Origin: Firmicutes bacterium UBA5389
GTDB taxonomy: Bacteria > Bacillota > DTU025
Length of the DNA: 64,000 nucleotides
Assembly (NCBI GenBank): GCA_002409965.1
Contig: DHON01000122.1
Span: 19,867-83,866 of the forward strand
Direction of reading: 5' to 3'
In this document: positions 6,386 through 58,451 of the stretch, one piece after another
How the letters are laid out: the number at the start of each line of letters is the position of its first letter
Numbering within the stretch: position 1 is the stretch's first letter
The notes under the pieces: generated by a model
The model's input: the letters and a program-made list of their open reading frames with translations, nothing else
What the model was told of the DNA's origin: nothing
Databases searched by the model: none
Made by a program: the position numbers and the translations under genes

Positions 6386-7007
6386 GGTGGACTTGGCCCC
6401 AGCCCCGGTTGCGGCAGGTTCTGTGGATTCGGCGGATTCCGCTGACGAGCAAGAGCGAGCGAGGCGGCGGCGGCATGTGTGGATACCCGCTCTGGTCCTG
6501 GTGGCGCTGATCGGAGTTGCGGCGGGATATTTCCTTTTCATGGCGAGCGACAGGCGTGCGGCTTTGAGCCCTGGTGCGTCTGGGCCGACCGTGGCGGCGG
6601 GCGGCCGTTTCGCTCAGAGGTTCGCCGACCTGCTAGCCGCGAGCGATGTCGCCGGGCTGACGGCAGACGGGCCGGCGCTTGGGGCGAACGAGGGAGGCCG
6701 TTGGGATCCGTTTGCGCCGCTGGTGGAATTGGGGCCGGCTGTCAAGCCCATCGAGTCCGATAGCCGAGCGGTTGCCCCGCCTGAGCCCGAGCCTGAGCCG
6801 CCCAAGCCGCCGCAGGCGATGCTCACGGGGGTGTTGCGGTCAGGGGGGAGGGCGGTCGCCATCATTCGCGTGGAAGGGCAGACACGGCTGACCCGGGTGG
6901 GGGAGTCTCCATTCGACGGCGCTGTGGTCAGATCCATAGACGACAAGTCTGTTGTAGTATCGTTTCTCGGAGAAGATATCCACTACTCCCTAGGGGGTGA
7001 GCAGTAA
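6348..7007 (+). CDS. PilP-like pilus assembly protein (TM anchor, Pro/Ala-rich linker, C-terminal beta domain)
   Basis: It sits between pilO and pilQ. The C-terminus LTGVLRSGGRAVAIIRVEGQTRLTRVGESPFDGAVVRSIDDKSVVV resembles the PilP beta-sandwich. The start is uncertain (6321, 6348 or 6387). Confidence 0.45.
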   Translation: MINLRRSRPRVAKVDLAPAPVAAGSVDSADSADEQERARRRRHVWIPALVLVALIGVAAGYFLFMASDRRAALSPGASGPTVAAGGRFAQRFADLLAASDVAGLTADGPALGANEGGRWDPFAPLVELGPAVKPIESDSRAVAPPEPEPEPPKPPQAMLTGVLRSGGRAVAIIRVEGQTRLTRVGESPFDGAVVRSIDDKSVVVSFLGEDIHYSLGGEQ

Positions 7008-12588: not shown

Positions 12589-13629
12589 TTGTCGGCCAAG
12601 GTCCGAGACCCGGTGCTGGACGAGATTTTCCCAGCTCTCCCCCCTCGGGTCCGCGAGGCTGTCCTGGCGCTGCCCAGCGCGGACAGGCAGAGTCTTCTGG
12701 AGATTCGCCTGCGTCGAGGGCGAGCGGCCATGGCGGTTACGGCAGAGGGGGACTTGTATCTTCGTTGCGCGGGACAACCTGTGATATGCACAGAGAATGA
12801 ATGGGAGGCGGCGTTACGACTCGTCACCCAGTCCTCGATCTACGCCCTTGAACGCGAGCTTGCAGCGGGTTTTGTGACACTGGCCGGCGGTCACCGGGTC
12901 GGGTTGGTGGGCCGAGCGGTGCTGGAAGGCGAGCGGGTGCGCGGTCAGTCCGAGCTGTCGAGCATGAACTACAGAATCGCGCGGCAGATGATAGGCATCG
13001 CGGACCGAGTGATGCCCTACGTGTTTTCTGCAGATGGGACGCGAGTTATGAATGTTCTGATTTTATCCGGTCCCGGGCTGGGCAAGACAACGCTGCTGCG
13101 GGACATCGCCCGACAGCTATCGACGGGGTCGGGCGCAGAGTCGAGCATGGGCGCAGCGCCGGCCGCGGCCTCGATGGCAGGGTTCAAGGTGGGAATCGTC
13201 GATGAGCGATCGGAGATAGCTGCGTGCAGTCAGGGGGTGCCCCAGAACGAGCTGGGGCCGCGCGCGGATGTGATCGATGGGTGCCCGAAGGCCGTGGGAA
13301 TCATGATCATGATCAGGACGATGTCGCCGGATGTTGTGATCACCGACGAGGTGGGGCGGGCCGACGATGCAGATGCGCTGGAAGAGGCGTCTCGGTGTGG
13401 GGTATCGGTGATAGCTACGGCTCATGCCCTGGACCCCGAAGACGCGATGCGACGACCGGCCATCCGGGACGCGCTGGCACGGGGCGCTTTCGACCGGGCG
13501 ATTGTGCTCGGGAGGTCGCTTGGCCTGGGCACGTGCGAGCGCATTGTGGACTTGCGGTCGGGACGGGATCTGGCGGCGAGGCCGTTTCGTCTCGCGAGCG
13601 GCGGCGAAACCGGGGGAGTACGGCGATGA
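12589..13629 (+). CDS. spoIIIAA: Stage III sporulation protein AA (AAA-type ATPase)
   Basis: LLEIRLRRGRAAMAV motif and Walker A GPGLGKTTLLRD. It is the first gene of an 8-gene spoIIIA-like array after efp. Confidence 0.85.
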   Translation: MSAKVRDPVLDEIFPALPPRVREAVLALPSADRQSLLEIRLRRGRAAMAVTAEGDLYLRCAGQPVICTENEWEAALRLVTQSSIYALERELAAGFVTLAGGHRVGLVGRAVLEGERVRGQSELSSMNYRIARQMIGIADRVMPYVFSADGTRVMNVLILSGPGLGKTTLLRDIARQLSTGSGAESSMGAAPAAASMAGFKVGIVDERSEIAACSQGVPQNELGPRADVIDGCPKAVGIMIMIRTMSPDVVITDEVGRADDADALEEASRCGVSVIATAHALDPEDAMRRPAIRDALARGAFDRAIVLGRSLGLGTCERIVDLRSGRDLAARPFRLASGGETGGVRR

Positions 13630-14150
13630 CTGTGGCTTTGAGACTGGCCGGAGCGGTATTGACTGTGGGGGCCAGCGGGCTTCTGGGGTTGATGGTGGCT
13701 GAGTCCTATCGCGCGCGCGAGCGCGAGCTTGCGGCGTGGATTACGGCGCTGACATCGCTTCAGACCGAGATATCCTTCGGCCATACCCGTCTGGGACAGG
13801 CGATGCGCCGAGCGGGTTCCGCCTCGGGGGGCACGCCCGCCCGGATCCTGGCGCGCGCCGCGGAGCTCTTGGAGCAGGGCGACTCGGGAGGGGCGGGCGA
13901 GTGTCTGGCGGCGGCGCTCGGGCTCGGCCGCGCCGAGCGGGGCCGACGGGACGAGGCAGACGCTCTGCTGGCGCTGGGGCAGCGTCTGGGTGCGTCGGAC
14001 GCCGCCGACCAGGCCAGGCACATCGGCCTTGCCGTCGGGCGACTGGAGGGCTGCAGGGCCAGGGCGGCGGACGCTGCATCGCGAGACTGCCGGGTCTGGT
14101 CGTCAATCGGCTTCTTGCTGGGCGGGATGATCACGATAGCGCTTCTCTAA
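13626..14150 (+). CDS. spoIIIAB: Stage III sporulation protein AB
   Basis: 174 aa with an N-terminal TM helix and a helical body. ATG 13626 overlaps the spoIIIAA stop. The longer ORF 13224-14150 is out-of-frame read-through of spoIIIAA. Confidence 0.75.
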   Translation: MTVALRLAGAVLTVGASGLLGLMVAESYRARERELAAWITALTSLQTEISFGHTRLGQAMRRAGSASGGTPARILARAAELLEQGDSGGAGECLAAALGLGRAERGRRDEADALLALGQRLGASDAADQARHIGLAVGRLEGCRARAADAASRDCRVWSSIGFLLGGMITIALL

Positions 14151-14164
14151 AGGAGGGCCTGGCA

Positions 14165-14362
14165 GTGGGGCTGGATCTGGTGCTCAGGATTGCGGGAGTA
14201 GGAATACTTGTGTCGGTCCTGTGCGCTATCCTCAAGCAGCAGGGCAAGGAGGAGTATTCGCTTCTCGTCGCTACCGCCGGGCTCGTTGTGGTCTTCCTCA
14301 TGCTTGTGCAGCACATTGGCGAGTTGCTTTCCAGTGTGCGCACGGTCTTTCAACTGTGGTGA
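14165..14362 (+). CDS. spoIIIAC: Stage III sporulation protein AC
   Basis: 65 aa, two TM helices (LRIAGVGILVSVLCAILKQQGKEEY...). AAAGGAGGG lies upstream of GTG 14165. Confidence 0.8.
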   Translation: MGLDLVLRIAGVGILVSVLCAILKQQGKEEYSLLVATAGLVVVFLMLVQHIGELLSSVRTVFQLW

Positions 14363-14382
14363 CTGTGGTGAGGGGAGTTGCC

Positions 14383-14772
14383 ATGCTTATCGCGCAGGTA
14401 ATCGGGGTGGCGCTTCTCGGGTGCGCGCTGCTGGCGATGCTCAGGGGCGTAAGGTCGGACATGGCTGTGGCTCTCTCGGCGGCGCTTGGAGTGGTCCTGT
14501 TCGTGCTGGTGGTGTCGCGCCTGGCGGACTTCGTCGCAGCGCTTACAGGCATGGCATCGGCGGCGGGAGTGAACCGTCTCTACCTGGACACCGTGCTCCG
14601 GGCGGTCGGTGTGGCGTATCTTGCGTCCTTCGGCGCGCAGGTGTGCCGGGACGCGGGCGAGGGGGCGCTGGCCGTCAAGGTCGAACTGGTGGGGAAGGTG
14701 TTGATCCTGTGCATGGCTGCGCCTCTGATGTTCGCTCTGCTCGAAACGGTGCTTCGGGTGTTGCCGCAATGA
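14383..14772 (+). CDS. spoIIIAD: Stage III sporulation protein AD
   Basis: 129 aa, four TM helices. Conserved order after spoIIIAC. Confidence 0.8.
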   Translation: MLIAQVIGVALLGCALLAMLRGVRSDMAVALSAALGVVLFVLVVSRLADFVAALTGMASAAGVNRLYLDTVLRAVGVAYLASFGAQVCRDAGEGALAVKVELVGKVLILCMAAPLMFALLETVLRVLPQ

Positions 14773-15977
14773 GACGGGCAACGGTCTTGGCGCGGGGCGC
14801 TCTGCTGTGGGCAACTCTGACGGTTCTGGTTCTGGCGGGTGCGACCGCTGCGACATCGTCGGAGGACGAAGCGGTTTTGGCTGCAGAAACGCTGGAAGAC
14901 GCCGCCGTGGAACACCTCTCGCAGCTTGATACGGACGGAATAGAGCGGTTCTTGCGCGGGGTGGACGATGACGTGGCTCAGCGGCTGCCGGAATTTGACA
15001 TTAGGCGCATCATGTCAACACACGGCTCGAACCTGCTTGACCTGCCGCGGCTTGGACGCGAACTAGCCGGCGTTTTTATCCGCGAAGTCCAGCTCAACCT
15101 CAGGCTCCTCGGTGAGCTGGTGGTGGTGGCGGTGGTCTGCACCATGCTGTGCCTGCTGGGCGCGGGATTTGGGGAGGAGGGCCCGGCTGCCGTGGCGTGG
15201 GCGGCCTGCTACATGGTGATGGTGGTGTTGGGAGTTAGGTCTTTCTCCGTGTCAGCTGAGATCGCCACGCGCGCAGTGGACCAGATGACGTCTTTCATGT
15301 ACGCTGTCATACCTGCGCTCATTGGGACGCTGGCGGCGTCGGGGGGAGTGGCGACAGCCGCGGTGGTCTCGCCGTTCATGCTGGGGGCTACAGCGGCTGT
15401 GGGGACTCTGGTGAAGACGACGATCATACCCCTTCTGTTGATGGCGGTCACTCTGAGCCTGGTGGGGGAGATAAGTCGGCGCAAGCAGCTGTCGCGCCTG
15501 GCTGGGCTGCTGAAGTGGGCGGGGATGACCCTGCTGGGACTGGCGACTACGGTCTTCGTGGCGTTCACCGGCGTGCGGGGCGGGTTGGCCAGCATTTCAG
15601 ACGGAGCCGCGGCAAAGGCGGTCAAGTTCCTGTCGGGCAGCATGGTGCCTGTTGTCGGCAAGGTGTTCGGCGATGCGCTGGACCTGGTGGCCGCGTCTTC
15701 GCTGCTGGTGAGGGGTGCAGTGGGGGCGTTTGGCCTGGTGACGCTGGCCGTTGTATGCCTCTTTCCGGTGATGAAGATGACGGCCATCATGCTGATGTTT
15801 CGAATCGCGGCTGCAGTCACGCAGCCTCTGGGCGATAGCCGCGTGTCCGACTGCCTGAGCGAGCTGGGCGACGCGCTGTCGTCGCTGTGTGTGTGTGTGG
15901 CAACTGTGGGACTGATGTTCTTTATCGGGGTGTCAATCGTCGTTGGACTGGGCGGTGTGGTTGTGGCGGTGAGATAA
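14769..15977 (+). CDS. spoIIIAE: Stage III sporulation protein AE
   Basis: 402 aa with a signal peptide, a soluble N-domain and a polytopic membrane domain. ATG 14769 overlaps the spoIIIAD stop. Confidence 0.85.
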   Translation: MRRATVLARGALLWATLTVLVLAGATAATSSEDEAVLAAETLEDAAVEHLSQLDTDGIERFLRGVDDDVAQRLPEFDIRRIMSTHGSNLLDLPRLGRELAGVFIREVQLNLRLLGELVVVAVVCTMLCLLGAGFGEEGPAAVAWAACYMVMVVLGVRSFSVSAEIATRAVDQMTSFMYAVIPALIGTLAASGGVATAAVVSPFMLGATAAVGTLVKTTIIPLLLMAVTLSLVGEISRRKQLSRLAGLLKWAGMTLLGLATTVFVAFTGVRGGLASISDGAAAKAVKFLSGSMVPVVGKVFGDALDLVAASSLLVRGAVGAFGLVTLAVVCLFPVMKMTAIMLMFRIAAAVTQPLGDSRVSDCLSELGDALSSLCVCVATVGLMFFIGVSIVVGLGGVVVAVR

Positions 15978-15990
15978 GGAGGCGCCTGGC

Positions 15991-16545
15991 GTGGTGGACG
16001 GCGTGTTCCGGTGGGTGCGCGGCATAGTCGCGGTGGTGCTCACGATGACGTTCATGGAGATGGTTGTGCCGCGCTCAGAACTGAAGAAATACGTTGATGT
16101 GGTGGTGGGCTTGGCGGTGATTGGGGCCATCCTTACCCCCCTACTCGGCCTGGGCGTGGGCATCGGAACCGGGCTGGAGCTTGCTGCCGAGGCGACTCGC
16201 AGTTGGCCGGCATCCTGGAGGACGGCGGCGCAAACCGGAGCGCCGCCAGGGCTGGACGCAGAAATCGCCTCATCCGTTGCGTCTCGCGCGCTGGAAGCCC
16301 GCGTGCGGAAGGCCCTCAGTTCGTCCTACGGAAGGCTTGCAGACGGCTGGACCGTCAGAGTGCGCGTTACAGACGGCGGCGAGCTGGAGGCGGCGGAGGT
16401 GGATACGGGCCTGCGCGCGCCGTCAGGTGGGTCTGGCTCGCAGGGTCCGGAGGGCTCTCTGCCTGTCGCCGTGGACCGGACGGCTGTGACGCGGACGGTT
16501 GCTTTGGCGCTGGAATCGCCGCTTCAGTTGGTGACAGTGAGGTGA
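15991..16545 (+). CDS. spoIIIAF: Stage III sporulation protein AF
   Basis: N-terminus WVRGIVAVVLTMTFMEMVVPRSELKKYV with two TM helices. AAGGAGG lies 8 nt upstream. Confidence 0.75.
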   Translation: MVDGVFRWVRGIVAVVLTMTFMEMVVPRSELKKYVDVVVGLAVIGAILTPLLGLGVGIGTGLELAAEATRSWPASWRTAAQTGAPPGLDAEIASSVASRALEARVRKALSSSYGRLADGWTVRVRVTDGGELEAAEVDTGLRAPSGGSGSQGPEGSLPVAVDRTAVTRTVALALESPLQLVTVR

Positions 16546-16553
16546 CGGGCGGC

Positions 16554-17159
16554 ATGGGGCGGGATTTTCTGAATACCCCGGGGGTCAAGCCCCTTTTGGT
16601 GTTGGCGGCCGTGGGCGTGATGCTGATCATCATAGGCAGCCTGCTGCGGACGGGGACTTCCCGCGAGTCGCGGCAAACGCCCCTGCCGGATGGGGCGAGT
16701 GTCTCGAGCAAGCAGCCTGGATCGGGGGATACGGAAGGCGGTGCCGCGCTGGAGAGGTATAGGTCTGACTTGGAGTCGATGTGCGAGGAGATTCTGTCGA
16801 AGGTGGAGGGCGCGGGGGCGGTGAGCGTCCGGATCACTCTGGTCGGGAGTTCGTCCAGGGAGTATGCCCAAAACTCAGTGGTGGAGGAGAGCAACAGCGA
16901 GGAGCAGGCATCGGGGCAGACCAAACGTTCTTCGGAGCGGCGCCAGACGCGCGAGATGGTGCTTCTGACCGATCCGTCTTCTGGGCGCGGGCAGGTGCCG
17001 ATACTCCTTGCGGAGCAGGCGCCTCGAATAGCCGGAGTGCTGGTGGCAGCGCCCGGCGCCGAGGATTCGGCGATCAAGCGCGAACTGGCTGCAGCGGCCC
17101 AGACGCTGCTGGGCGTGCCGGCCCACCGGGTGATGGTGGTGGCCTCGTGCAAGCCGTGA
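16554..17159 (+). CDS. spoIIIAG: Stage III sporulation protein AG (ring-forming, EscJ/PrgK-like)
   Basis: An N-terminal TM helix, then VSVRITL...REMVLL...PRIAGVLVAAPGAEDSAIKRELAAAAQTLLGVPAHRVMV, which is typical of SpoIIIAG. Confidence 0.8.
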   Translation: MGRDFLNTPGVKPLLVLAAVGVMLIIIGSLLRTGTSRESRQTPLPDGASVSSKQPGSGDTEGGAALERYRSDLESMCEEILSKVEGAGAVSVRITLVGSSSREYAQNSVVEESNSEEQASGQTKRSSERRQTREMVLLTDPSSGRGQVPILLAEQAPRIAGVLVAAPGAEDSAIKRELAAAAQTLLGVPAHRVMVVASCKP

Positions 17160-17202
17160 CGGAACGCGCCAGAACTCACGACAAGTCCGAGGAGTGATCG
17201 GC

Positions 17203-17805
17203 GTGAAGGGCGACAGATGGTTTCTGCAGCTGTCTTATGCCATGGTTGGCCTGGCCGTGCTGGCCCTGGCCATCTCGTCGGCGGCGGACTCGCGACGAGG
17301 GCGGAGAGCATCGGCGTCCGTGCCCGCGCCGGCACCCACGTCGATACCTCAGCCGGCATCTGTACCGACAGAGCGGACAGAAGAAGGCGCGGGTTCGGGC
17401 TTGCCCATAGTGTCGGAATCCGCGTCTGCGCCCGTGCCCGTTGCTCTGCCCCGGTCGAGCTTCTTCGAAGAGTTCAGACTGGAGCGTGAGAGGGAGCGGG
17501 CGATCGAAATCGAGATCATCCAGGAAGTCGCGGAGGACCCCGATACTGATTCCGAGGTGAGACGCCAGGCGCAGGCCGCCTTGCTGGCCGCGGTGAGCAG
17601 GGCGCGCCGCGAGTTCGATGCCGAGAGCATGATACTGGCGAGGGGGTATGCGGATGCCATTGTGTCGTTGACTGACGAGGGTGCAAGCGTGGTGGTGAAG
17701 TCGGGAAGACTTGAAGAGGCGGATGCACGGGCGATAGGCGATATCGTGGGGCGCGCCGCAGGCATCGGCCTGAGCAGAATCACGATTGCCCAGAGAGAGG
17801 ACTGA
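17203..17805 (+). CDS. spoIIIAH: Stage III sporulation protein AH
   Basis: TM anchor, FFEEFRLERERERA motif and a C-terminal YscJ-like domain (AIVSLTDEGASVVVKS). GAGGAG lies 8 nt upstream of GTG 17203. Confidence 0.8.
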   Translation: MKGDRWFLQLSYAMVGLAVLALAISSAADSRRGRRASASVPAPAPTSIPQPASVPTERTEEGAGSGLPIVSESASAPVPVALPRSSFFEEFRLERERERAIEIEIIQEVAEDPDTDSEVRRQAQAALLAAVSRARREFDAESMILARGYADAIVSLTDEGASVVVKSGRLEEADARAIGDIVGRAAGIGLSRITIAQRED

Positions 17806-17867
17806 AGGATAAACCGTGGGGCGCGGTGAATTGTTTAGAGACAGCGACGGCAGAATGCTGCCTCGTC

Positions 17868-17876
17868 TGCTATAAT
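17868..17876 (+). promoter_or_regulatory. Extended -10 element TGcTATAAT upstream of asp23
   Basis: TGCTATAAT at 17868-17876. No good -35 element was seen. Confidence 0.35.
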
Positions 17877-17927
17877 TCTATTGCGGTCGCCAGTGATTCT
17901 TCCTGGCGGACGCCGGGGGGTGCAGAG

Positions 17928-18311
17928 ATGGAACTTGAGGAGAGGCCTGAACTCGGATCGGTCAAGATCGCCAACGAGGTTGTGGCGGTCATCGCCGGCC
18001 TGGCTGCGTCGGAGGTGGAAGGCATCGCCGGGATGTCCGGCGGCATTACCGAAGGCTGGAGCGAGCTGTGGGGCAAGAAGAACCTGGCTCGCGGGGTCAA
18101 GGTTGAGGTCGGCGAGAAGGAGGCTGCGGTCGACCTCAATGTGGTCGTGAAATACGGCGCGGTGATCCCCGAGGTGTGCGCAGGCGTGCAGCAGAATGTG
18201 AAGCGCGCCATTGAGATCATGACAGGGCTAGATGTAGTCGAAGTCAACGTTCATGTCACGAACGTTTTGGTCGATGAGAAGGAACCGCCTACAGAGGCGC
18301 GCGTGCGCTAG
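17928..18311 (+). CDS. Asp23/Gls24 family envelope-stress (alkaline shock) protein
   Basis: 127 aa. The sequence KIANEVVAVIAGLAASEVEGIAGM...VKVEVGEKEAAVDLNVVVKYG is typical of Asp23. Confidence 0.85.
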   Translation: MELEERPELGSVKIANEVVAVIAGLAASEVEGIAGMSGGITEGWSELWGKKNLARGVKVEVGEKEAAVDLNVVVKYGAVIPEVCAGVQQNVKRAIEIMTGLDVVEVNVHVTNVLVDEKEPPTEARVR

Positions 18312-18338
18312 TCTGCGCTGTGCGTCCGCACTGCGGAG

Positions 18339-18887
18339 GTGATGGAATTGAAGACGCTTGACCGGGTTGTACTGGTTGTTGCAGCGGCATTCGTAGTTGT
18401 GCTGAGCGCCGTGGTGTTGGCATCGGTAGCTGGCCCGGGCTTCCCGAATGGCTTCGCCATGGATTTCTTCGGGGCCGTGTCTGAGCACAAGCTTGTGACC
18501 GCGGCCGTGGGCATTCTGATGGCTCTGGTCGTCTTGTACCTTATTTCAGCCGCGCTCAGGAGCGAGGATGAGCCCACACCGATAGTGGTCAACACGGCGC
18601 TGGGCGATGTGCGCATATCGATGTCGGCGATCGAGGCCATAGTCCGCCGGGCCGCCCGCCAGGTCAGCGGGATCAGGGAAGTGGACGCTCAGGCGACGGG
18701 AGATTCGGAAGGAATCGCGGTGTCCACGAAGATTCAAGTGTACCCGGACGTCAGCATTCCCGAGGTATGCGAACGCCTCGAGAACGAGCTCTCGACGGCA
18801 TTCACTGCGATGGTGGGCCTTCCCGTCAAGTCGGTGCACACCATAGTCCGCGGCGTGGCGCATGAACGCAGCAAGCCCAGGGCGTAG
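18339..18887 (+). CDS. AmaP-like membrane anchor protein (Asp23-related, N-terminal TM helices)
   Basis: Two N-terminal TM helices followed by an Asp23-like domain (VRISMSAIEAIVRRAARQVSGIREV). Conserved position after asp23. The start is uncertain (18339-18348). Confidence 0.6.
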   Translation: MMELKTLDRVVLVVAAAFVVVLSAVVLASVAGPGFPNGFAMDFFGAVSEHKLVTAAVGILMALVVLYLISAALRSEDEPTPIVVNTALGDVRISMSAIEAIVRRAARQVSGIREVDAQATGDSEGIAVSTKIQVYPDVSIPEVCERLENELSTAFTAMVGLPVKSVHTIVRGVAHERSKPRA

Positions 18888-18926
18888 TCGCCCGGCTGTG
18901 GGCGTTGAGCGTGGAGGGGTGGCCGT

Positions 18927-19157
18927 ATGGCGTGGTTCAAGAACAGCAACTGGAGCATTCCCGAGGAGCATTCGGGCGAAGTGATCGGCGCAATCGCCGG
19001 CGGGGTCTTCGGGCTGCTTGTGATCATAGCCGGATTCTGGCGGGCGCTGGCGTTTGCGATCTTTGTGGTTATCGGATTCATGCTCGGCAGATACGTGGAC
19101 GATCACGAGGGGCTCAAGGCCGTGATTGCAAGGCGGTTTCGGAGGCCGCGCTACTAG
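18927..19157 (+). CDS. Small integral membrane protein, DUF2273-like
   Basis: 76 aa, two TM helices (GAIAGGVFGLLVIIAGFWRALAFAIFVVIGFMLG). It is the usual third gene of asp23 operons. Confidence 0.7.
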   Translation: MAWFKNSNWSIPEEHSGEVIGAIAGGVFGLLVIIAGFWRALAFAIFVVIGFMLGRYVDDHEGLKAVIARRFRRPRY

Positions 19158-19187
19158 GCCGCGCGATGGAAGTACGACAGGAGTGGT

Positions 19188-19661
19188 ATGCGGATGCGCG
19201 CTGAGCGGCGGCGAGCCAGAGAGGCCGCCATGAGGGCTCTTTATCAGGTAGACTTGTCCGGTTGCGCTGAAGAGTGGGCGATCCAGTGCGCGCTCGAGCA
19301 ATCGCATGATCTCGATCTCGGCGAACGGGGCAAGTCTTTCGCTCGTCAGCTCGTGCTGGGATCGTGCGAGCGCAAGCAGGATATCGACGGTATCATGGCA
19401 GAAGTCGCACACGACTGGGCCGTTAACCGTATGTCGCCGACGGACAGGAACATCATGCGGATTGCCGTCTATGAGATGCTGTATCTTGAGAGCGTGCCTG
19501 TGGCCAGCTCCATCGATGAGGCAGTGGAGATTGCCAAGCTCTACGGAAGCGCCGACTCTCCGCGGTTCGTCAACGGAATCCTGGGCACGCTGGCCGACAG
19601 GCTCAAGCGCCAGGCCTCCGGCGGCACTGCCGAGGGAGGGGACGGTGACACTGCTCGCTAA
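19188..19661 (+). CDS. nusB: Transcription antitermination factor NusB
   Basis: RRRAREAAMRALYQVD...RNIMRIAVYEML...AVEIAKLYGSADSPRFVNGILG is canonical NusB. Confidence 0.9.
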   Translation: MRMRAERRRAREAAMRALYQVDLSGCAEEWAIQCALEQSHDLDLGERGKSFARQLVLGSCERKQDIDGIMAEVAHDWAVNRMSPTDRNIMRIAVYEMLYLESVPVASSIDEAVEIAKLYGSADSPRFVNGILGTLADRLKRQASGGTAEGGDGDTAR

Positions 19662-20649
19662 CCTGTGCAGCCTGGGGCTGGACACAAGCTGCTACACAAC
19701 GTCAGTGGCCCTGGTTGACAGCGGCGGCCTTGTCTACGACGGCAGGACGCCGCTTGAGGTTTCTTTCGGGGCAGTGGGGCTGCGCCAGTCCGAGGCGGTG
19801 TTTCAACATGTCCGCAACACCCCCGCTCTCATTGAGGCCGCGCTACATACTGCCAGGCAGCGCGGCCTGAAGGTCGCGGCTGTGGGTGCCAGCGCCTGGC
19901 CACGGCGGGTTCGGGGATCATACATGCCGGTCTTTCTGGTGGGCTCGGGTTTTGGCCGGGCCGCATCGGCATCGCTGGCAGCGCCGTATATTGAGGTATC
20001 GCATCAGGAGGGACACATCGCCGCCGCCAGCTGGTCGTCGGATCTGGGCATCGCAAGATGCGGCGGTTTTCTCGCTCTCCACCTGTCGGGAGGCACGACC
20101 GAACTATTGGCGGTGCGCGACAGGTTCAGCGTAGAGCTGCTGGGAGGCACTGACGACTTAAGCGCCGGTCAGTTCATCGACAGAATCGGCGTCAAACTGG
20201 GGATACCTTTCCCTGCAGGCCCGGGGCTGGAGCGGTTGGCGGCGGATGGGCGCTCGGGGGCGGCGAGGTTGCCAGTGGCCGTTGCGCGCGCACGCGAGCC
20301 GGGGCATTTGGCGGTGAGCTTCTCAGGGCCGTGTTCAGCTGCCATGCGGGAACTGGGCGCAGGCACGCGCCAAGCGGACCTGGCTCTGGGCGTTCTGGAA
20401 TGCATAGGGCAGTCGGCGGCGGCGCTGTGCGCGGAGGGGCTAAGGGCCGCCGGCCTTCGTGAGCTGCTGGCCTCGGGCGGAGTGGCTTCGAATTCGATCA
20501 TCCGCCGCATAATGCAGGATGAAGTCGCGCGCATGGTCCCAGGCTCAGTGCTGCACTTCGCGGCGCCCGAGCATTCGCGCGACAATGCAGTGGGAGTGGC
20601 GCTTCTAGCGTGGCAGGCGCACATTGAGAATGGGGGTGCGTCCTGTTGA
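19645..20649 (+). CDS. Kae1/TsaD-like (peptidase M22 / ASKHA fold) protein
   Basis: N-terminal LGLDTSCYTTSVALVD and an HQEGH (HxxxH) motif resemble TsaD. GAGGGAGGGG precedes GTG 19645. The longer ORF from 19306 is out-of-frame read-through of nusB. Confidence 0.6.
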   Translation: MTLLANLCSLGLDTSCYTTSVALVDSGGLVYDGRTPLEVSFGAVGLRQSEAVFQHVRNTPALIEAALHTARQRGLKVAAVGASAWPRRVRGSYMPVFLVGSGFGRAASASLAAPYIEVSHQEGHIAAASWSSDLGIARCGGFLALHLSGGTTELLAVRDRFSVELLGGTDDLSAGQFIDRIGVKLGIPFPAGPGLERLAADGRSGAARLPVAVARAREPGHLAVSFSGPCSAAMRELGAGTRQADLALGVLECIGQSAAALCAEGLRAAGLRELLASGGVASNSIIRRIMQDEVARMVPGSVLHFAAPEHSRDNAVGVALLAWQAHIENGGASC

Positions 20650-21854
20650 ACGGATATTCCAGGATCGCCGGATTTCCCGGAGCGGGCGGTCCGCTCGAGA
20701 TTGAGGTCTACTCAGTCTCTCAGGTCACCGACTTCGTAGCCAGGTTGCTTCAGGCCGACACGCGCCTTGCCGATGTGTGGGTGAGCGGCGAGATATCCAA
20801 CTTCACGCACCACTCGTCTGGGCACATGTACCTGACGCTCAAGGACAATGCTTCGCGCCTTCGCGCCGTGATGTTCCAGGGAGCCAACAGGGGATTGCGT
20901 TTTCGCCCGGAGAGTGGGATGCGTGTGTTCGCCCATGGATACGTGGGCGTGTACAGAAGCGGAGGAGAGTATCAACTTTACGTAGACTTCATGGAACCCG
21001 CGGGGCTCGGGGCGCTGTTCCTCGCCTTTCAACAGCTCAAGGCCAAGTTGGAGGCACAAGGGCTGTTCGATCCGGCGCTGAAGCGGTCGCTGCCCAGATT
21101 TCCGAAGTGTATAGCTGTGGCCACATCGCCGACTGGAGCGGCGATTCGCGACATTATCACTGTGGCCAGGCGGCGGTGGCCTGCTGTGCATATCGTGGTC
21201 ATCCCCGCGCTGGTGCAGGGAGATGGGGCGCCTGCCAGCATTGTGGCTGCCATTGAACGCGCTAACGCCGCGAGCGGCACCGAGGGCATTGTCGACATCG
21301 ACGCGCTCATAGTCGGGCGGGGCGGCGGGTCGGCCGAGGAGCTGTGGGCTTTCAATGATGAGACGGTGGCCAGGGCGATCAGGTCGTCTCGGATTCCGGT
21401 GGTGTCGGCGGTGGGCCATGAAACCGACTTCACCATAGCCGACTTCGCCGCCGACGTCAGGGCGGCAACGCCATCGGCCGCAGCGGAGCTTGTGGTGCCC
21501 GACATGGGAGTGTACCTGCGTCAGCTGGACACGTTGCAGACGAGGCTGGCCAGGTCAGTGCGGCGATTGCTCGATCAGCGAAAACAGCGCATGGACGAGT
21601 TAGGGCGGTGGCTTACTCAGAGGATCCAGGTCAAGCTGCGGACCTCACGTGACAGAGTCCAGCGCCTATCGGGGGTGCTGTCGGCGCTCGACCCTGAGGC
21701 GGTGCTGGGACGCGGATACGCCATATGCCGGGGCCCGGACGGGTCGATCTTGAAAGACTCCCAAGATGTGCAGACGGGGGACGCGGTGCGCGTGAAGCTC
21801 GGCCGCGGGGCCATCGGCTGCGAAGTGCGCGAGCGCGAGGTGGTTGAAGGATGA
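20646..21854 (+). CDS. xseA: Exodeoxyribonuclease VII large subunit
   Basis: 402 aa with an OB-fold N-terminus (VWVSGEISNFTHHSSGHMYLTLKD) and catalytic core (RGGGSAEELWAFNDE). Confidence 0.9.
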   Translation: MNGYSRIAGFPGAGGPLEIEVYSVSQVTDFVARLLQADTRLADVWVSGEISNFTHHSSGHMYLTLKDNASRLRAVMFQGANRGLRFRPESGMRVFAHGYVGVYRSGGEYQLYVDFMEPAGLGALFLAFQQLKAKLEAQGLFDPALKRSLPRFPKCIAVATSPTGAAIRDIITVARRRWPAVHIVVIPALVQGDGAPASIVAAIERANAASGTEGIVDIDALIVGRGGGSAEELWAFNDETVARAIRSSRIPVVSAVGHETDFTIADFAADVRAATPSAAAELVVPDMGVYLRQLDTLQTRLARSVRRLLDQRKQRMDELGRWLTQRIQVKLRTSRDRVQRLSGVLSALDPEAVLGRGYAICRGPDGSILKDSQDVQTGDAVRVKLGRGAIGCEVREREVVEG

Positions 21855-22159
21855 AGGCATCGAATGCGAAGAATGCGAAGAATGCGAAGAATGCAGCGAA
21901 TGAGCCCAACGAGCTGACTTTCGAGGCGGCGCTGGCGCGCCTTGAGCAGATAGTTGCCAGGCTGGACGCGGGCGACTTGCCGCTCGAAGAGGCGCTCAAG
22001 CTATTTGGCGAAGGCAGCGAACTCGGCAAGTTCTGCTTATCCGTTCTCGATGAGGCAGAGGGCAGGCTTGAGATGCTGATCGAGGGAAAAGACGGCAGGC
22101 CGCAGGCGGTGCCGGCCCAGGACATACTGGGCAAGCTAGAAGGGGAGAGCGGCAATTGA
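21851..22159 (+). CDS. xseB: Exodeoxyribonuclease VII small subunit, with an N-terminal (NAK)n low-complexity extension
   Basis: LTFEAALARLEQIVARLDAGDLPLEEALKLFGEGSELGKFC is typical XseB. ATGA overlap with xseA. Confidence 0.85.
   Translation: MKASNAKNAKNAKNAANEPNELTFEAALARLEQIVARLDAGDLPLEEALKLFGEGSELGKFCLSVLDEAEGRLEMLIEGKDGRPQAVPAQDILGKLEGESGN
21862..21894 (+). repeat. 9-bp tandem repeat GAATGCGAA, 3.6 copies, inside the 5' end of xseB
   Basis: Read directly from the sequence. It encodes NAKNAKNAKNA. Confidence 0.85.
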
Positions 22160-23079
22160 GCAACCGTAAGTCCAAGGGCATGTCCTTTCCGTGGCTGGCA
22201 CAGGTGTCACAGATGGTGGACGCGGCGCTTGATTCCGTCATACCCGGGTGCGGCGCCGAACCAGAAACCCTCCTCCGCGCGGCGATGAGGCACGCGGTGT
22301 TCCCAGGCGGCAAGAGGCTCCGTCCGGCCCTGGCTGTGGCGGCCTGCGAGGCCGCGTTGGGCTTGGGACCGCGTCCCGAAAACGACATTCGTCTTGCTGC
22401 TGTAATACGGGCTGGAGCTGCTGTAGAGTTAGTCCACTGCTACTCTTTGGTCCATGATGACCTTCCATGTATGGACGACGACGATTTCAGACGCGGGCGT
22501 CCATCATGCCACAGTGCCTTCGGTGAGGCGGTGGCTCTGCTTGCAGGCGATGCCCTACTTACGCTGGCTTTCGAGTTGCTTATGCGCCCCGAGTTTGTGG
22601 AGGTCGCCGGGGCAGACCGGGCTTGTCGCTGCGCGCTCGAGCTTGCCAGGGCGGCCGGCAGTGCGGGAATGGCGGGTGGACAGGCACTTGAGCTTACGAT
22701 GCCTCGCCAATCGTGGGCAGGGCGGCTGTGCGAGGCTGCGGAGGCTGTACAGAGGATGGAATCGATGAAGACCGGGTGTCTGTTTGAAGCCGCGGCGCGA
22801 ATGGGGGGCATTGTGGGCGGTGCGGACGAGCCTGCGATGGGCGCGCTTTCGCGTTTCGCTTGCCAGTTCGGGCTGGCTTTTCAGATACGGGACGATGTCG
22901 AGGACGCGGTAGCGCAAGACGCAGAGTCGGGAAGGATCACGGCGGTTTCGGTGTGGGGGCTTGAAGGGGCCCGCGAGCAGTTTGGTGCGTCCATGGCCCA
23001 AGCGGCGCAGCTCGCCGATGTTTTTGGTGAGGCGGGATCCAAGCTTCGCGATATGGTTGATCTCATATCATTTGCCTGA
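22156..23079 (+). CDS. ispA: Farnesyl/geranyl diphosphate synthase (polyprenyl synthetase)
   Basis: First Asp-rich motif LVHDDLPCMDDDDFRRGRPSCH and second motif FQIRDDVED. It follows xseB as in Bacillus. Confidence 0.85.
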   Translation: MSNRKSKGMSFPWLAQVSQMVDAALDSVIPGCGAEPETLLRAAMRHAVFPGGKRLRPALAVAACEAALGLGPRPENDIRLAAVIRAGAAVELVHCYSLVHDDLPCMDDDDFRRGRPSCHSAFGEAVALLAGDALLTLAFELLMRPEFVEVAGADRACRCALELARAAGSAGMAGGQALELTMPRQSWAGRLCEAAEAVQRMESMKTGCLFEAAARMGGIVGGADEPAMGALSRFACQFGLAFQIRDDVEDAVAQDAESGRITAVSVWGLEGAREQFGASMAQAAQLADVFGEAGSKLRDMVDLISFA

Positions 23080-23125
23080 AGCGAGTCGGCCTCGGCGTGC
23101 GTGACGGCATGAGTGTGGTGGAGAC

Positions 23126-23575
23126 ATGTTTTCGCTCAGCAGTGGCGTATTTTCAAACAGAATCCTGTGGATCGCGGTGATCGCCTGGGCCATAGCTCAG
23201 ACCCTCAAGACCTTTACCAGCATAAGGAGTGAGGGCCGGATCGACTGGTCGAAGATCATGGGGCCGGGCGGCATGCCCAGTTCCCATTCGGCGTTCGTCA
23301 CGAGCCTGGCAACGGCGATAGGCCTCACCGAGGGGTGGAACTCCGGCATGTTCGCGGTGGCGTTTGTGTTTGCGGCAGTAGTGATGTACGATGCCGCAGG
23401 GGTCAGGCGCGCCGCGGGCAAGCAGGCGCGCGTGCTCAACCAGCTGATGACGATCATGCTGAAAGAAGGCCACGTGCCTGCTACCAAGCTTCGGGAACTG
23501 CTGGGGCATACTCCATTTGAAGTGGTAGTGGGAGCGCTGCTGGGCATCGCCATTGCGCGGCTGATGCTGCGGTAG
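23126..23575 (+). CDS. Divergent PAP2 / DUF212 (YuiD-like) membrane protein
   Basis: GGMPSSHSAFVTSLATAIG...MYDAAGVRRAAGKQARVLNQL...GHTPFEV is the family signature. Confidence 0.75.
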   Translation: MFSLSSGVFSNRILWIAVIAWAIAQTLKTFTSIRSEGRIDWSKIMGPGGMPSSHSAFVTSLATAIGLTEGWNSGMFAVAFVFAAVVMYDAAGVRRAAGKQARVLNQLMTIMLKEGHVPATKLRELLGHTPFEVVVGALLGIAIARLMLR

Positions 23576-23608
23576 TCCATATGACCGATTGTCCGATTGT
23601 CTGGCGAT

Positions 23609-23638
23609 TTGAATGGCGCTCGCAAGTTATGGTATAAT
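23609..23638 (+). promoter_or_regulatory. Near-consensus sigma-A promoter driving the large ncRNA
   Basis: TTGAAT (23609-23614), an 18-nt spacer, then the extended -10 element TGgTATAAT (23630-23638). Confidence 0.6.
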
Positions 23639-23644
23639 CAAGGT

Positions 23645-24255
23645 CGCAGTGGATAGGTGGCGCAGTATCCTAGTCGGAGCGGGCACTCCTGAAGGCGGGG
23701 GTAAAAGACCGCTAAGGGCACATCGATGAAGTCCGTTGTGCTGGCTTTCAACGCCCAGTTGGGGGCTGGTGCAGGGGGTTAAGGTTGTGGGGCGATCCGC
23801 AATGGCATGTGGGCGTAGACCCCGCTTCCGCGGAGGCCCAAGTGCGTGGTTGGTTCTACGGCTTGGGGGTAACCTGCATGCGGTACCGGCCTGCGAAAAG
23901 CGCAGAATGGTGTTGGGTGCAGCGTAGCCTGCCTTGAGTGGACGTGTGGGATGCGGGTATCAAGTCATGTTCTCCCCGGCCAGGGAGACTGACCTTCTGC
24001 CGTCTGAAAGCACGCCTGCAAAAGAGGCTAAGGAATAGCCCGCGCTGCCGAGGAAAACTCCTAGGCTGTTTGCGATGCTTGGCGCCCCGGGGATTACAGT
24101 GTGCACTAAGTGGCAATCCAGTTGCTCCTGCGGCGACGGGGAGAGCCTGTCGTAAAGGGAAACCGCCCCCCGGCGACGGGAGGGTGTACAGGCGGGAAAA
24201 CCTACTGGACCTTAAGTCACAATATTTACTCGGGGCGCTGCCACCTATCGACATG
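23645..24255 (+). ncRNA. ole: OLE (ornate, large, extremophilic) RNA candidate, ~600 nt
   Basis: There is a 757-nt gap with no credible ORF and its own promoter. GATAGGTGGC (23652-23661) is perfectly complementary to GCCACCTATC (24240-24249), closing ~600 nt. Many internal hairpins are present. The context ispA-[RNA]-small membrane protein-dxs-tlyA-nadK-argR-recN matches the known OLE locus. The ends are approximate. Confidence 0.7.
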
Positions 24256-24332
24256 CATTCATCTCCAGCTCGTCACCGCTCGCGCAGGAGTGTGGGTTGA
24301 GATGAGAGACAGGCAAAACTGATGAGGTGAAC

Positions 24333-24968
24333 ATGACCTTGCCACAAGGACTGGGACGGATCCTTGCCGTCGGGCTGTGGACTTTCGTCCTGTCGGCCGC
24401 GTTAAGCTTCAGCTCAGGGGCTCTGGCGGGCACCATGAACATCGGGTTTTCGATCTCCGTTCTTACTGCAATAATAGCTACAGGGATCCTGTTTGATATC
24501 GTCGGCACCGCTGCCGCTGCGGCCAGCGAGGCGCCGATAAACGCCATGGCCGCCAACCGCGTGTACGGGGCGCCCGAGGCCTTGGGAATTGTGCGAAACG
24601 CGCCGGCGGTGGCCAACTTCTGCAACGATCTTGTGGGCGACATATGCGGCACGGTAAGCGGCGCCGTTGGAGCCACGATCGCCATCAATATCGCCCTGGC
24701 TCCGGCAACGCTGCCTGCGAAGGTAGCGTCTGCGGCAATGATAGGTCTGATCTCAGCCGCCACTGTGGCCGGCAAGGCTGCGGGCAAGAGGTTTGCCATT
24801 GAATCGGCCAATAGCGTGGTGCTGGCGGTGGGGCGAGTGATCGCCGCGTTTCACCGGCTGGTCCCCAGGGGCAGCTGGGCTTGGCATTCGCGGCGAGGCA
24901 ACTCCGGGCGGTCGCGCAATAGGAACGGCAGGAGCGGCGGGAACGGCAGGAATGGCGAGGACGTGTGA
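24333..24968 (+). CDS. oapA: OLE-associated membrane protein OapA candidate, with an Arg/Gly/Asn-rich C-terminal tail
   Basis: About 211 aa and about four TM helices. It lies immediately downstream of the OLE-like RNA and upstream of dxs, the position of oapA. The tail reads SRRGNSGRSRNRNGRSGGNGRNGEDV. Confidence 0.6.
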   Translation: MTLPQGLGRILAVGLWTFVLSAALSFSSGALAGTMNIGFSISVLTAIIATGILFDIVGTAAAAASEAPINAMAANRVYGAPEALGIVRNAPAVANFCNDLVGDICGTVSGAVGATIAINIALAPATLPAKVASAAMIGLISAATVAGKAAGKRFAIESANSVVLAVGRVIAAFHRLVPRGSWAWHSRRGNSGRSRNRNGRSGGNGRNGEDV

Positions 24969-24969
24969 A

Positions 24970-26913
24970 ATGCGAAGGGACGATGTGCTCCCGATGACAA
25001 CCATTCTGCAGCAGATCCAGTGTCCTGCCGATCTTCGAAAGCTGTCGGGCGGGCAGATCGGGCGGCTTGCGGCAGAGATACGACAGTGCATAATCGAAAC
25101 AGTCTCCCGCACCGGCGGCCATCTGGCACCTAATCTCGGCGTCGTAGAACTCACGATAGCGATCCACCTGGCCCTAGATTGCCCTCGCGACAAGGTCATA
25201 TGGGATGTGGGCCACCAGTCTTATGTGCACAAACTCCTTACCGGGAGATGCGGGGCCTTCGCTTCTCTGCGCCAGCAGGGGGGCATCTGCGGTTTTCCGA
25301 GGCCCGAGGAGAGCCCGTACGACTGCTTCGCTACCGGGCACTCCAGCACTTCCATATCCGTAGCTCTCGGCATGGCGCGAGCCCGCGACCTCGCCGGGGA
25401 CGACTACACTGTGATGGCCGTAATCGGAGACGGTTCCTTGGCGAGCGGCATGGCTTTCGAGGCTGTGAACGATGCCGGGCATGCCAATACCTCCCTAATC
25501 GTCATCCTGAACGACAACGAGATGTCGATTTCACGCAGCGTGGGAGGGCTTGCCAGCTACCTGGGTTCGGCCAGAGCCAATCCCAGGCGAAGGCAGCTGA
25601 GGTCTGCCATGCAGCGGGCGGTGCTGCGCATACCCATCGTCGGGCGCGCGCTCCGCGCCGTTGGCCACTCCGTCAAGCGGAGCGTCAAATCCCTTCTCCT
25701 GCGAGGCATGCTCTTCGAGGAACTGGGGTTCATGTACATCGGCCCCATCGATGGCCACAATGTGCGCGCAGTTCGACGCGCCATTGACGATGCGCGTCAG
25801 GCCGGGGGGCCTGTGTTGATTCACGTCATAACCAGGAAAGGCCTGGGGTACCCTCCGGCTGAGGCCAACCCGGCCAGGTTCCATGGGACGGGCCCGTTCG
25901 ACGTGCGCACAGGCGAGGCGGCGCCCGATGTGCGAAAGTCTTTTACTGCGCATTTCAGCGATTTCATGGTGCGCGCCGGAGAGTCCGACGAGGCAGTGGT
26001 GGCGATCACTGCCGCAATGACTAACGGCACCGGGCTGCGCGCATTCTCAGAACGCTTCCCTGACCGCTTCTTCGATGTGGGCATAGCGGAACAGCATGCG
26101 GTGACCATGGCAGCGGGTCTGGCTGCCGGCGGCTGCCGCCCTGTGGTGGCTGTCTACTCCACGTTCCTCCAGCGCGCATACGACCAGGCAGTCCATGACG
26201 TTGGCATCGGACGCCTTCCGGTGGTGTTCGCCATCGACCGGGCCGGAATCGTGGGCGAGGACGGCTATACGCATCAGGGCGCGTTCGATGTGTCTTTCAT
26301 GCGCCATATCCCTGGGATGACTGTGATGGCTCCCAAAGACGAGGCCGAGCTTTACGCCATGATGCAGGCCGCTCTTGGGCATCCGGGGCCGTGCGCCGTG
26401 AGATATCCCAGGTCGCCCGGGACGGGCGTGGATGTGCGGTACCCGGCTCAGCCCGTGGAGATGGGCCGAGCCGAAGTGGTTCGCGATGGTCGGCATTGCG
26501 CGATCTTCGCTCTGGGTCCGATGGTGTGGCCTTCTCTCGAAGCCAGCAGGATTCTGTCGGCGCGTGGCGTAAGTTGTGCAGTAGTGAACGTCAGGTTCGT
26601 GAAGCCGCTTGATACGGGCATACTGGCGAAATACGCGTCCTCTACGGGCATGATCATCACGTGCGAGGATGCGGCGCTTTCCGGCGGTCTGGGCTCGGCG
26701 GTGCTTGAGGCGCTGGCGCAGGAGGGCATGAGCGGCGTTCGCGCCGTCAGGCTGGGTATTCCTGATAGGTTCATAGAACACGGGCGCCGGGATGCCGTAC
26801 TTGCGCAGCTGGGATTGGATGCCCGGGGCATAGCGGCCGTGGCGATGCAGGCTCTTTCGGAGCTACCTGACGCCAGCCCGTCGGGCGGTGGTGCGCGTGT
26901 CTCCACAGTGTAG
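24970..26913 (+). CDS. dxs: 1-deoxy-D-xylulose-5-phosphate synthase
   Basis: ILQQIQCPADLRKL N-terminus, TPP-binding GDGSLASGMAFEAVNDAG, transketolase-like domains. The start is 24970 or 24994. Confidence 0.9.
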   Translation: MRRDDVLPMTTILQQIQCPADLRKLSGGQIGRLAAEIRQCIIETVSRTGGHLAPNLGVVELTIAIHLALDCPRDKVIWDVGHQSYVHKLLTGRCGAFASLRQQGGICGFPRPEESPYDCFATGHSSTSISVALGMARARDLAGDDYTVMAVIGDGSLASGMAFEAVNDAGHANTSLIVILNDNEMSISRSVGGLASYLGSARANPRRRQLRSAMQRAVLRIPIVGRALRAVGHSVKRSVKSLLLRGMLFEELGFMYIGPIDGHNVRAVRRAIDDARQAGGPVLIHVITRKGLGYPPAEANPARFHGTGPFDVRTGEAAPDVRKSFTAHFSDFMVRAGESDEAVVAITAAMTNGTGLRAFSERFPDRFFDVGIAEQHAVTMAAGLAAGGCRPVVAVYSTFLQRAYDQAVHDVGIGRLPVVFAIDRAGIVGEDGYTHQGAFDVSFMRHIPGMTVMAPKDEAELYAMMQAALGHPGPCAVRYPRSPGTGVDVRYPAQPVEMGRAEVVRDGRHCAIFALGPMVWPSLEASRILSARGVSCAVVNVRFVKPLDTGILAKYASSTGMIITCEDAALSGGLGSAVLEALAQEGMSGVRAVRLGIPDRFIEHGRRDAVLAQLGLDARGIAAVAMQALSELPDASPSGGGARVSTV

Positions 26914-58099: not shown

Positions 58100-58149
58100 T
58101 CAGGGTAGCGACAGTTGAATACGTGCGTGAACGATGTGCGCCTCCCGGC

Positions 58150-58285
58150 GCGCATCCGCTGAATCTTCCCTGGTGGAAGAGCGGGGGACCCAAATCCCAG
58201 TGGATGGGGCGAATCCTGCGAAGTGCAGGTAGGGCTATCACCTTCGGCCCGAGCCCGTCAGCTAACCTCGCAAGCGAAATGAAGG
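58150..58285 (+). promoter_or_regulatory. c-di-AMP riboswitch (ydaO-yuaA motif) aptamer
   Basis: The conserved blocks are present in the right order. They are CCGCTGAATC (58156), GAGCGGGGGACCCA (58179-58192), GGGGCGAATCC (58206-58216), GGTAGGGC (58228-58235) and AGCCCGTCAGCTAACCTCGCAAGCG (58252-58276). They match the blocks I recall from the B. subtilis ydaO leader. Confidence 0.75.
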
Positions 58286-58296
58286 GACGCTCATCC

Positions 58297-58329
58297 GTGC
58301 CCGGGTGTGTCCCTGGGCACTTTTTGTTT
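58297..58329 (+). terminator. Intrinsic terminator (riboswitch expression platform)
   Basis: GTGCCCGGG tgtgt CCCTGGGCAC followed by TTTTTGTTT. It lies 120 nt upstream of the SBP start codon. Confidence 0.8.
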
Positions 58330-58451
58330 CGGCCCATTGTGCCTTTGTCTCTTCATCTGCAGCTTGCTCTCCACTTGCTTATCTTGCGTTCCCCATCAGC
58401 TAATCGCACGTCTATCTGGAAATCCAGTATGGACGGAGGGTGATCATATCT

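Follow-up and report, generated by a model that had tools for sequence, protein, structure and literature searches.

A stretch of 64,000 nucleotides (nt) from Firmicutes bacterium UBA5389 (assembly GCA_002409965.1, contig DHON01000122.1, forward-strand positions 19,867 to 83,866), which we call the window and whose coordinates count from its first letter, contains a gap of 757 nt at 23576-24332, between the stop of a DUF212 gene (23575) and an ATG at 24333. Our analysis indicates that this gap holds a standard, functional, full-length OLE RNA gene followed by oapA, and that both lie in their usual cluster, xseAB-ispA-[ole-oapA]-dxs-tlyA-nadK-argR-recN, a reading to which we assign a probability of roughly 0.92. 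The match to the RNA family, the covariation of the closing helix P1, the promoter, the features of oapA, and the expression of the RNA together identify a bona fide OLE/OapA locus. An original prediction, made from the sequence alone, had proposed as much, and it is supported by the full-length RF01071 match, the OapA features, and the conserved promoter and P1 that are described below.

The OLE RNA

Searching the whole window with the Rfam models placed the OLE family (RF01071) at 23641-24260 on the + strand, a gene of full-length type with 620 nt, at 442.3 bits compared to a gathering score of 50 (expect value (E) 1.4e-126), and with alignment to model positions 1-616 of 616. This is close to the original prediction, in which a significant covariance-model match was expected at about 23645-24255 (+) and for which one of 442 bits was obtained. 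The ends of the mature RNA are probably near 23643 and 24258. For comparison, 80 loci with relatives of the downstream protein were gathered from species-representative genomes, and an alignment of 67 full-length OLE genes was used for the analysis of conservation and covariation. OLE RNAs keep roughly one-quarter of their positions nearly invariant. In those 67 genes, 211 columns reach at least 90% conservation, and the OLE of the window agrees with 208 of them, which is also the median for the family.

The sole mismatches of the window to these conserved columns are in an A-rich hairpin loop, CGGGGGUAAAAGACCG (23694-23709, +), which is off at three positions from the nearly invariant CGGGCCUAAAAAUCCG. 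None of the five OLE genes in the clade to which the window belongs keeps the usual form of this loop (CCUAAAAAU): it reads CGGGG-N-UAAA(A)-NN-CCG in the window and at the loci L001, L002, L081, and L084, versus CGGGCCUAAAAAUCCG in nearly all of the 67 genes. The clade, which we refer to as PilQ-bearing, comprises the window, AMR_MDS_1359, DTU025, GCA_034926675.1, and GCA_029567745.1, with the secretin PilQ confirmed on the ole contig only for the window and the two GCA assemblies. The A-rich loop is a candidate for P4, the loop that makes a dimer contact in the OLE structures obtained by cryo-electron microscopy (cryo-EM).

Other internal features that had been pointed out from the sequence were present and could be placed within the OLE structure. 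The hairpin CTGCG-AAAAG-CGCAG was found at 23891-23905 (+), where it is a small, lineage-specific element inserted in a variable OLE stem-loop. Against the Rfam consensus it shows up as an insertion of 19 nt, and the region surrounding it is variable across the OLE alignment. The duplicated CGGCGACGGG, at 24131-24140 and 24171-24180, proved to be two GGCGAC-containing hairpin loops of the 3' domain (24131-24180, +) that are conserved in both the Rfam consensus and the 67-gene alignment. In addition, a long P9-type stem has a palindromic GGCC loop (23978-23981, +) that aligns with the GGCC loop of the Rfam consensus. The GGCC loop of P9 is the kissing loop of the OLE dimer (PMC12265935).

The Closing Helix and the Promoter

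The segment GATAGGTGGC (23652-23661, +) had been described as the exact complement of GCCACCTATC (24240-24249, +), so that a long-range helix would enclose about 600 nt. The complementarity was borne out, with 10 of 10 pairs able to form, and the two segments are, judging by their strong covariation, the 5' and 3' arms of the conserved OLE P1 stem. By our estimate, ~0.3 complements of 10 base pairs are expected by chance in a 757-nt gap, and a single one is, on its own, within chance. It is the comparative tests across loci that make both this complement and the promoter significant. Across the 67 OLE genes, 88.4% of the P1 cells were paired compared to 67% in shuffles, and double-sided changes were seen in 187 cells versus 54 in shuffles, with nine of the ten pairs showing them. 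Sliding the partner arm by 1-3 columns lowered pairing to 35-64%, and the P1 covariation score was reached by none of 500 shuffles. The Rfam consensus line shows the P1 positions as unpaired.

A promoter of the form TTGAAT-18-TGgTATAAT, predicted at 23609-23638 (+), was present and was recovered independently by a promoter scan. Its -35 element, TTGAAT, is at 23609-23614 and is followed by an 18-nt spacer and an extended -10 element, TGgTATAAT, at 23630-23638. The site scored 10/12, with the TG, and the transcription start is predicted at ~23644-23647. In 2.3 kilobases (kb) the scan found one promoter-like site compared to 0.9 expected in shuffles, which alone is no more than chance, and for that reason conservation across loci was tested. 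Thirty-seven other OLE loci had enough upstream DNA for the scan, and 30 of these carry a site of the sigma-70 type, in most cases with the extended TGnTATAAT, versus 4.5% of random windows from the same loci. Where a promoter was found in the OLE loci, its -10 element usually ends 17-18 nt ahead of the conserved GUGGNGCAGUA. The proposal that ole has a promoter of its own is therefore backed by conservation in both type and spacing. Such a promoter and the enclosing helix were described earlier for Halalkalibacterium halodurans, in which the proximal OLE promoter was verified experimentally and raised expression >100-fold, the 5' ends of the RNA map near the start of P1, and its half-life is ~3 h (PMC3413148).

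The Downstream Protein OapA

The gene that follows the RNA (24333-24968, +; 211 amino acids) is oapA. As the original prediction assumed, translation probably begins at the ATG at 24333, just 5' of which is a likely ribosome-binding site (RBS), GAGGTG. Hydropathy analysis revealed four hydrophobic segments (residues 12-30, 41-59, ~102-124, and ~129-151), and the helices of an AlphaFold2 model (mean pLDDT 72.8) are consistent with them. The protein has a DxxxD motif, D101-L-V-G-D105, in which D101, G104, and D105 are unchanged across 24 relatives. It ends in a basic, Arg/Gly/Asn-rich C-terminal tail, encoded up to the dxs start, whose last 38 residues include nine Arg/Lys versus two Asp/Glu, and basic tails were present in all aligned OapA relatives. 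OapA is defined by four transmembrane (TM) helices, a fold like that of CNNM proteins, and DxxxD, which is absent from CNNM domains (PMC11332333). The OapA-like protein of about four TM segments that had been anticipated here thus has the four TM helices, the DxxxD motif, and the basic tail, and it belongs to an OLE-linked family.

Searches of Pfam, NCBIfam, and PDB sequences gave no significant match for the OapA of the window, and as there is no direct family match its identity is established through synteny, motifs, and predicted fold. The top four Foldseek matches were to the archaeal CNNM protein MtCorB (7M1T/7M1U), with probabilities of 0.91-1.0, weak E of 0.1-0.25, and template-modeling scores of 0.37-0.48, and 7M1U is also the top structural match reported for the H. 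halodurans OapA (PMC11332333). Weak PF01595 matches were obtained for 11 of the 24 relatives (best E 2.4e-6), and some of the 124 OapA homologs that were found have faint CNNM matches. Wherever upstream DNA was available, the gene for an OapA relative has an OLE gene directly 5' of it, and these OLE-linked relatives include named Fictibacillus, Fervidibacillus, Bacillus kwashiorkori, Neomoorella, Thermosediminibacter, and Thermoanaerobacter. The tblastn matches to the OLE-adjacent genes of those six genera or species have E of at most 1e-33, and identity to the OapA of Bacillaceae is 35-46%.

During the collection of relatives, we noted ole-oapA pairs on metagenome-assembled genomes (MAGs) labeled Actinomycetota (T3Sed10_139) and "Candidatus Humimicrobium oleiphilum" UBA1414 (loci L046 and L047), as well as oapA-dxs on a contig labeled Desulfovibrionaceae (L076). 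L047 has 35% guanine plus cytosine (GC), and its ole-oapA pair is found among sigma-factor, DegV, TspO, HAD, and beta-CASP genes, outside an ispA-dxs cluster. The presence of ole-oapA on MAGs with labels other than Bacillota could reflect transfer or mis-binning.

Expression and Transcript Ends

Evidence at the RNA level was provided by assembled metatranscriptome contigs from digesters and sludge, which derive from relatives and are 97-98% identical to the OLE of the window. In five RNA runs the OLE contigs start at 23643-23656 and end at 24252-24258, and in the same five runs depth was 0 on the DUF212 gene and 0 to ~70 on oapA. In run X32, single OLE pieces were 13,000-25,000 deep compared to 31 for the oapA piece, a difference of ~400-800-fold. 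The contigs of DNA runs span 23000-25200 at flat depth, one of them being 18 kb long with two differences, and because they continue through, the RNA boundaries are not artifacts of assembly. These data indicate that a discrete RNA of ~615 nt accumulates in close relatives, hundreds-fold above the flanking mRNAs, with ends that are approximate, as they are taken from contigs.

Low-level read-through into oapA also occurs, as low-depth RNA contigs from relatives link the OLE 3' end to oapA, and a sequence scan of the + strand found no terminator-like site between OLE and oapA. The 3' end is therefore most likely formed by processing or trimming back to P1. The oapA start is 72 nt beyond the end of the Rfam match. 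The spacer between the OLE 3' end and oapA is 34-35 nt in close relatives (runs X28 and X32) versus ~80 nt here and, since its length differs between relatives, it is not conserved.

The read-through, the lack of a terminator-like site, and the proximity of oapA would also be expected if the element were mainly a cis-acting leader (5' untranslated region) of the oapA-dxs mRNA and not a stand-alone RNA. We consider this very unlikely, as the excess depth of the OLE pieces over oapA was seen within one and the same run, and the RNA contigs of five runs stop at the OLE 3' end while DNA contigs go on. Moreover, in H. halodurans there is a single stable OLE species with a processed 3' end.

Weaker still, to the point of being negligible, is the idea that this OLE copy is a decaying relic or that the gap encodes protein. 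Open reading frames of 63-135 codons are indeed present in the gap on both strands, but neither frame nor position is shared across the window, L001, L002, and L081. The region is thus not coding, since the frames are unconserved among its closest relatives, and the coding hypothesis was rejected on that ground. A relic is likewise difficult to reconcile with the retention of 208 of 211 conserved positions, the covariation of P1, and the abundance of the RNA in relatives.

The Host and Its Envelope

The original prediction drew attention to outer-membrane machinery in the same window as OLE, and a PilQ secretin, pilM/N/O, and ExbB/ExbD were all found. The PilQ gene (7007-10645, +; 1212 amino acids) has a PF00263 match with E 5e-39 and 11 copies of PF03958 (Secretin_N), and ole follows 13 kb downstream of it on the same contig. 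It is part of a type IV pilus operon that also includes pilT/pilC-type genes (T2SSE, T2SSF), a pilin, a prepilin peptidase, and pilM/N/O. ExbB and ExbD were matched with E 1e-28 and 6e-26, respectively, a TonB C-terminal match was weak (E 0.034), and the window encodes one or more SLH proteins. Genes for BamA/Omp85, TamB, Lpx, Lpt, and OmpM are absent from the window. Sporulation genes are also present, including the spoIIIA operon and spoIVA.

This arrangement was observed in related genomes as well. A single 89-kb contig of GCA_034926675.1 carries, in the order of the window, the pilus operon with PilQ, spoIIIA, nusB, xseAB, ispA, DUF212, OLE, oapA, dxs, and ExbB/ExbD, and in GCA_029567745.1 PilQ is 7 kb from a full-length OLE on one contig. 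At least three genomes of the clade share PilQ, at 55-99% identity, and only about two dozen proteins are closely related to this kind of PilQ, every one of them from a Firmicutes MAG. These close relatives vary between 932 and 1574 amino acids, and the number of repeats seems to be variable within the clade. We also noted that in GCA_029567745.1 (L084, 10673-12921) the spoIIIA operon is absent from the efp-Asp23 slot that it holds in the window and in GCA_034926675.1, and some members of the clade may have lost or relocated sporulation genes.

The genomes closest to the window are "Bacillota bacterium AMR_MDS_1359" and "Clostridia bacterium DTU025", and the DNA runs in which this sequence was found are from fermenters, biogas plants, landfill, and sludge. 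The host is an uncultured, sporulation-competent Bacillota lineage of ~63% GC from anaerobic digesters. Among the Firmicutes, the diderm Negativicutes and Halanaerobiales are set apart from their monoderm relatives by having a secretin in the pilus locus (PMC5007114), and the Limnochordia are a diderm, partly spore-forming class with many genomes from digesters (PMC11456536). From its envelope genes, we consider it likely that the host is diderm. The earlier description of the host as apparently diderm is well motivated by PilQ, together with ExbBD, both here and in relatives, but it is not proven. Habitat, GC content, and envelope genes would permit a guess that the host is "Limnochordia-like". 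Some Halanaerobiales may carry OLE; our literature search found no paper linking the two.

An alternative is that the host is monoderm, that the secretin is a leftover or serves some other purpose, and that we have over-read the diderm context. The envelope markers that were seen are PilQ, ExbB/ExbD, the weak TonB C-terminal match, and the SLH proteins, and with such a set this alternative keeps some weight. Nevertheless, we think it improbable. This is because PilQ is found within an intact pilB/T/C-pilin-pilD-pilMNO operon and is well conserved in the clade, because among Firmicutes a secretin in this locus has been reported only for diderm lineages, and because the digester habitat, high GC, and sporulation genes fit diderm spore-formers of the Limnochordia type. 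That the secretin and OLE were joined only by chimeric assembly, which might be suspected for an uncultured organism known from a metagenome, was rejected as having almost no likelihood, as the PilQ-to-ole-oapA order is present on single contigs of two other assemblies and the 18-kb contig of an independent DNA run spans 23000-25200 with its two differences.

Several points weigh against our reading of the locus and its host. The Foldseek E for the OapA of the window (0.1-0.25) is weak, and in the Pfam search this protein was below significance for PF01595. The RNA contigs are those of relatives, not of the window organism itself, and are without strand or read-level ends. The diderm status of the host rests on the secretin and ExbBD.

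Gene Neighborhood

The coordinates of the 757-nt gap were borne out by direct reading of 23400-25100. Pfam and NCBIfam assignments gave the gene order nusB, TsaD-like, xseA, xseB, ispA, DUF212, the gap, the 4-TM protein, dxs, tlyA, nadK, argR, and recN, in agreement with the earlier listing of nusB, xseA, xseB, and ispA upstream and of dxs through recN downstream. The gap had also been described as less GC-rich than its flanks. A dip is present (0.59-0.61 versus 0.62-0.66 in most flanking genes), but it is small, and the DUF212 gene is as low. The ispA gene (farnesyl diphosphate synthase; PF00348, NF045485) is at 22156-23079 (+), and dxs (TIGR00204, 768 bits) is at 24952-26913 (+). The dxs start is probably the ATG at 24970, 2 nt past the oapA stop, with a GAGGA RBS within the end of oapA. 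The location of this RBS inside oapA and the near-abutting start suggest that the translation of oapA and dxs may be coupled.

The DUF212 gene (divergent PAP2, YuiD-like; PF02681, E 3e-53) is at 23126-23575 (+), between ispA and ole. The extra yuiD-like PAP2 gene that had been reported between ispA and the RNA is therefore real, but it is not unique to this genome. Another 14 loci, spread over at least six branches of a Dxs tree, have a DUF212 gene in this position, which amounts to about one-quarter of OLE loci, and some of the apparent absences in that tree are loci that are cut off upstream. All members of the window's clade have the insertion, as does a named Anaerosolibacter locus. The idea of DUF212 as a unique insertion was accordingly rejected. 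The proximity of a putative DUF212/PAP2-like membrane phosphatase to farnesyl diphosphate synthase suggests a possible link to polyprenyl-phosphate metabolism.

Two additional observations concern the rest of the window. A TsaD/Kae1-family gene (19306-20649) fills the slot between nusB and xseA in which Bacillus has folD, and it is kept in this slot in two related genomes (L081, 5416-6414; L084, 12943-13875). In addition, the sole other Rfam match in the window was a cyclic di-AMP (c-di-AMP) riboswitch (RF00379; 58147-58291, +; 90 bits, full model), located ~150 nt 5' of a gene for a family-5 solute-binding protein (58440-60014), which is followed by permease-sized open reading frames. From its gene content, the 58147-60014 region looks like a c-di-AMP-controlled operon for peptide or osmolyte uptake. 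The OLE literature speculates on connections between OLE and c-di-AMP.

Proposed Role of the OLE Particle

Work on H. halodurans and on clostridial OLE permits a proposal for how the particle might act in this host. By analogy with H. halodurans, the RNA would be very stable, with a 3' end that is processed or trimmed to P1. It would dimerize, as suggested by the cryo-EM structures of clostridial OLE together with the H. halodurans work, and would be held at the cytoplasmic membrane by OapA dimers, as may be proposed from studies in both groups. OapA itself would be a four-helix, CNNM/CorB-like putative transporter of divalent cations, with DxxxD and a basic tail. OLE, acting alongside OapB, OapC, and bS21, would be expected to help the cell under stress, including short-chain alcohols, cold, excess Mg2+, and poor carbon sources. 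Since the pilus operon contains the PilQ secretin, the particle would probably work in a cell with two membranes, at the inner one.

Comparison with Known Systems

In most respects, the locus is what would be expected from the H. halodurans OLE (RF01071). The two share a length of ~600 nt, the full consensus structure, P1, a promoter just 5' of P1, and high abundance of the RNA, and in both oapA is directly downstream, between ispA and dxs, with tlyA-nadK-argR-recN beyond. The window differs in its uncultured host of ~63% GC, its apparent outer membrane, and the DUF212 insertion. Within the RNA, one hairpin is shorter, the 19-nt hairpin is inserted, and the A-rich loop is off at its three positions. 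The palindromic GGCC loop and other conserved loops are shared with the OLE dimers of Clostridium acetobutylicum and C. botulinum that were determined by cryo-EM, whereas the A-rich loop differs.

The protein shows a similar pattern. Like other OapA proteins it has four TM helices, DxxxD, a basic region that is presumably cytoplasmic, and a predicted fold that may resemble that of CorB (7M1U), and it differs from the OapA of Bacillaceae, in addition to its modest identity to them, in an expanded Arg/Gly/Asn-rich C-terminal tail. The MpfA/CorB/CNNM Mg2+ transporters (PF01595) give the best structural match to its membrane domain, and some of its relatives have weak PF01595 matches. In contrast to those transporters, the window OapA has no CBS or CorC domains, has four helices and not three, contains DxxxD, and is below the Pfam threshold.

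OLE, its promoter, P1, oapA, and their neighborhood have all been established previously, and the locus is a textbook one that reveals nothing new about the mechanism of OLE. The sole aspect that goes past routine annotation is the combination of a secretin-bearing clade with a standard OLE-OapA. OLE is among the largest conserved bacterial RNAs without a known biochemical function, and its distribution has been used to consider what that function may be. In their 2024 survey, Fernando and Breaker counted 2,822 OLE genes across the Bacillota in GTDB and 24 matches outside that phylum. The Negativicutes were the sole major class without OLE, which was taken as a hint of a link to the Gram-positive wall. 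The MAGs of the clade studied here are probably included in the count of 2,822.

We propose, tentatively and with less than even confidence, that an outer-membrane-bearing, spore-forming clade of Bacillota keeps a complete and highly expressed OLE-OapA, which would speak against that hint. A clade with a standard OLE-OapA and outer-membrane machinery is in any case a natural test case for the idea of a wall link, and if the cells have two membranes, any OLE function that depends on touching a thick wall would probably not be a general one. The clade-specific change in the A-rich loop and the fixed DUF212 gene might be adaptations of the particle to a diderm envelope.

The lineage itself is most readily compared to the Limnochordia (Limnochorda pilosa, Geochorda, and Carboxydochorda), with which it shares high GC, a digester habitat, outer-membrane traits, and sporulation genes. 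For the particle, the relevant comparison is the model of Lyon and Breaker (2025), in which OLE dimers are proposed to cross the membrane such that domain 2 faces the Gram-positive wall. If the host is diderm and that transmembrane-dimer model is correct, domain 2 would here be located in a true periplasm under an outer membrane, and not against a thick wall.

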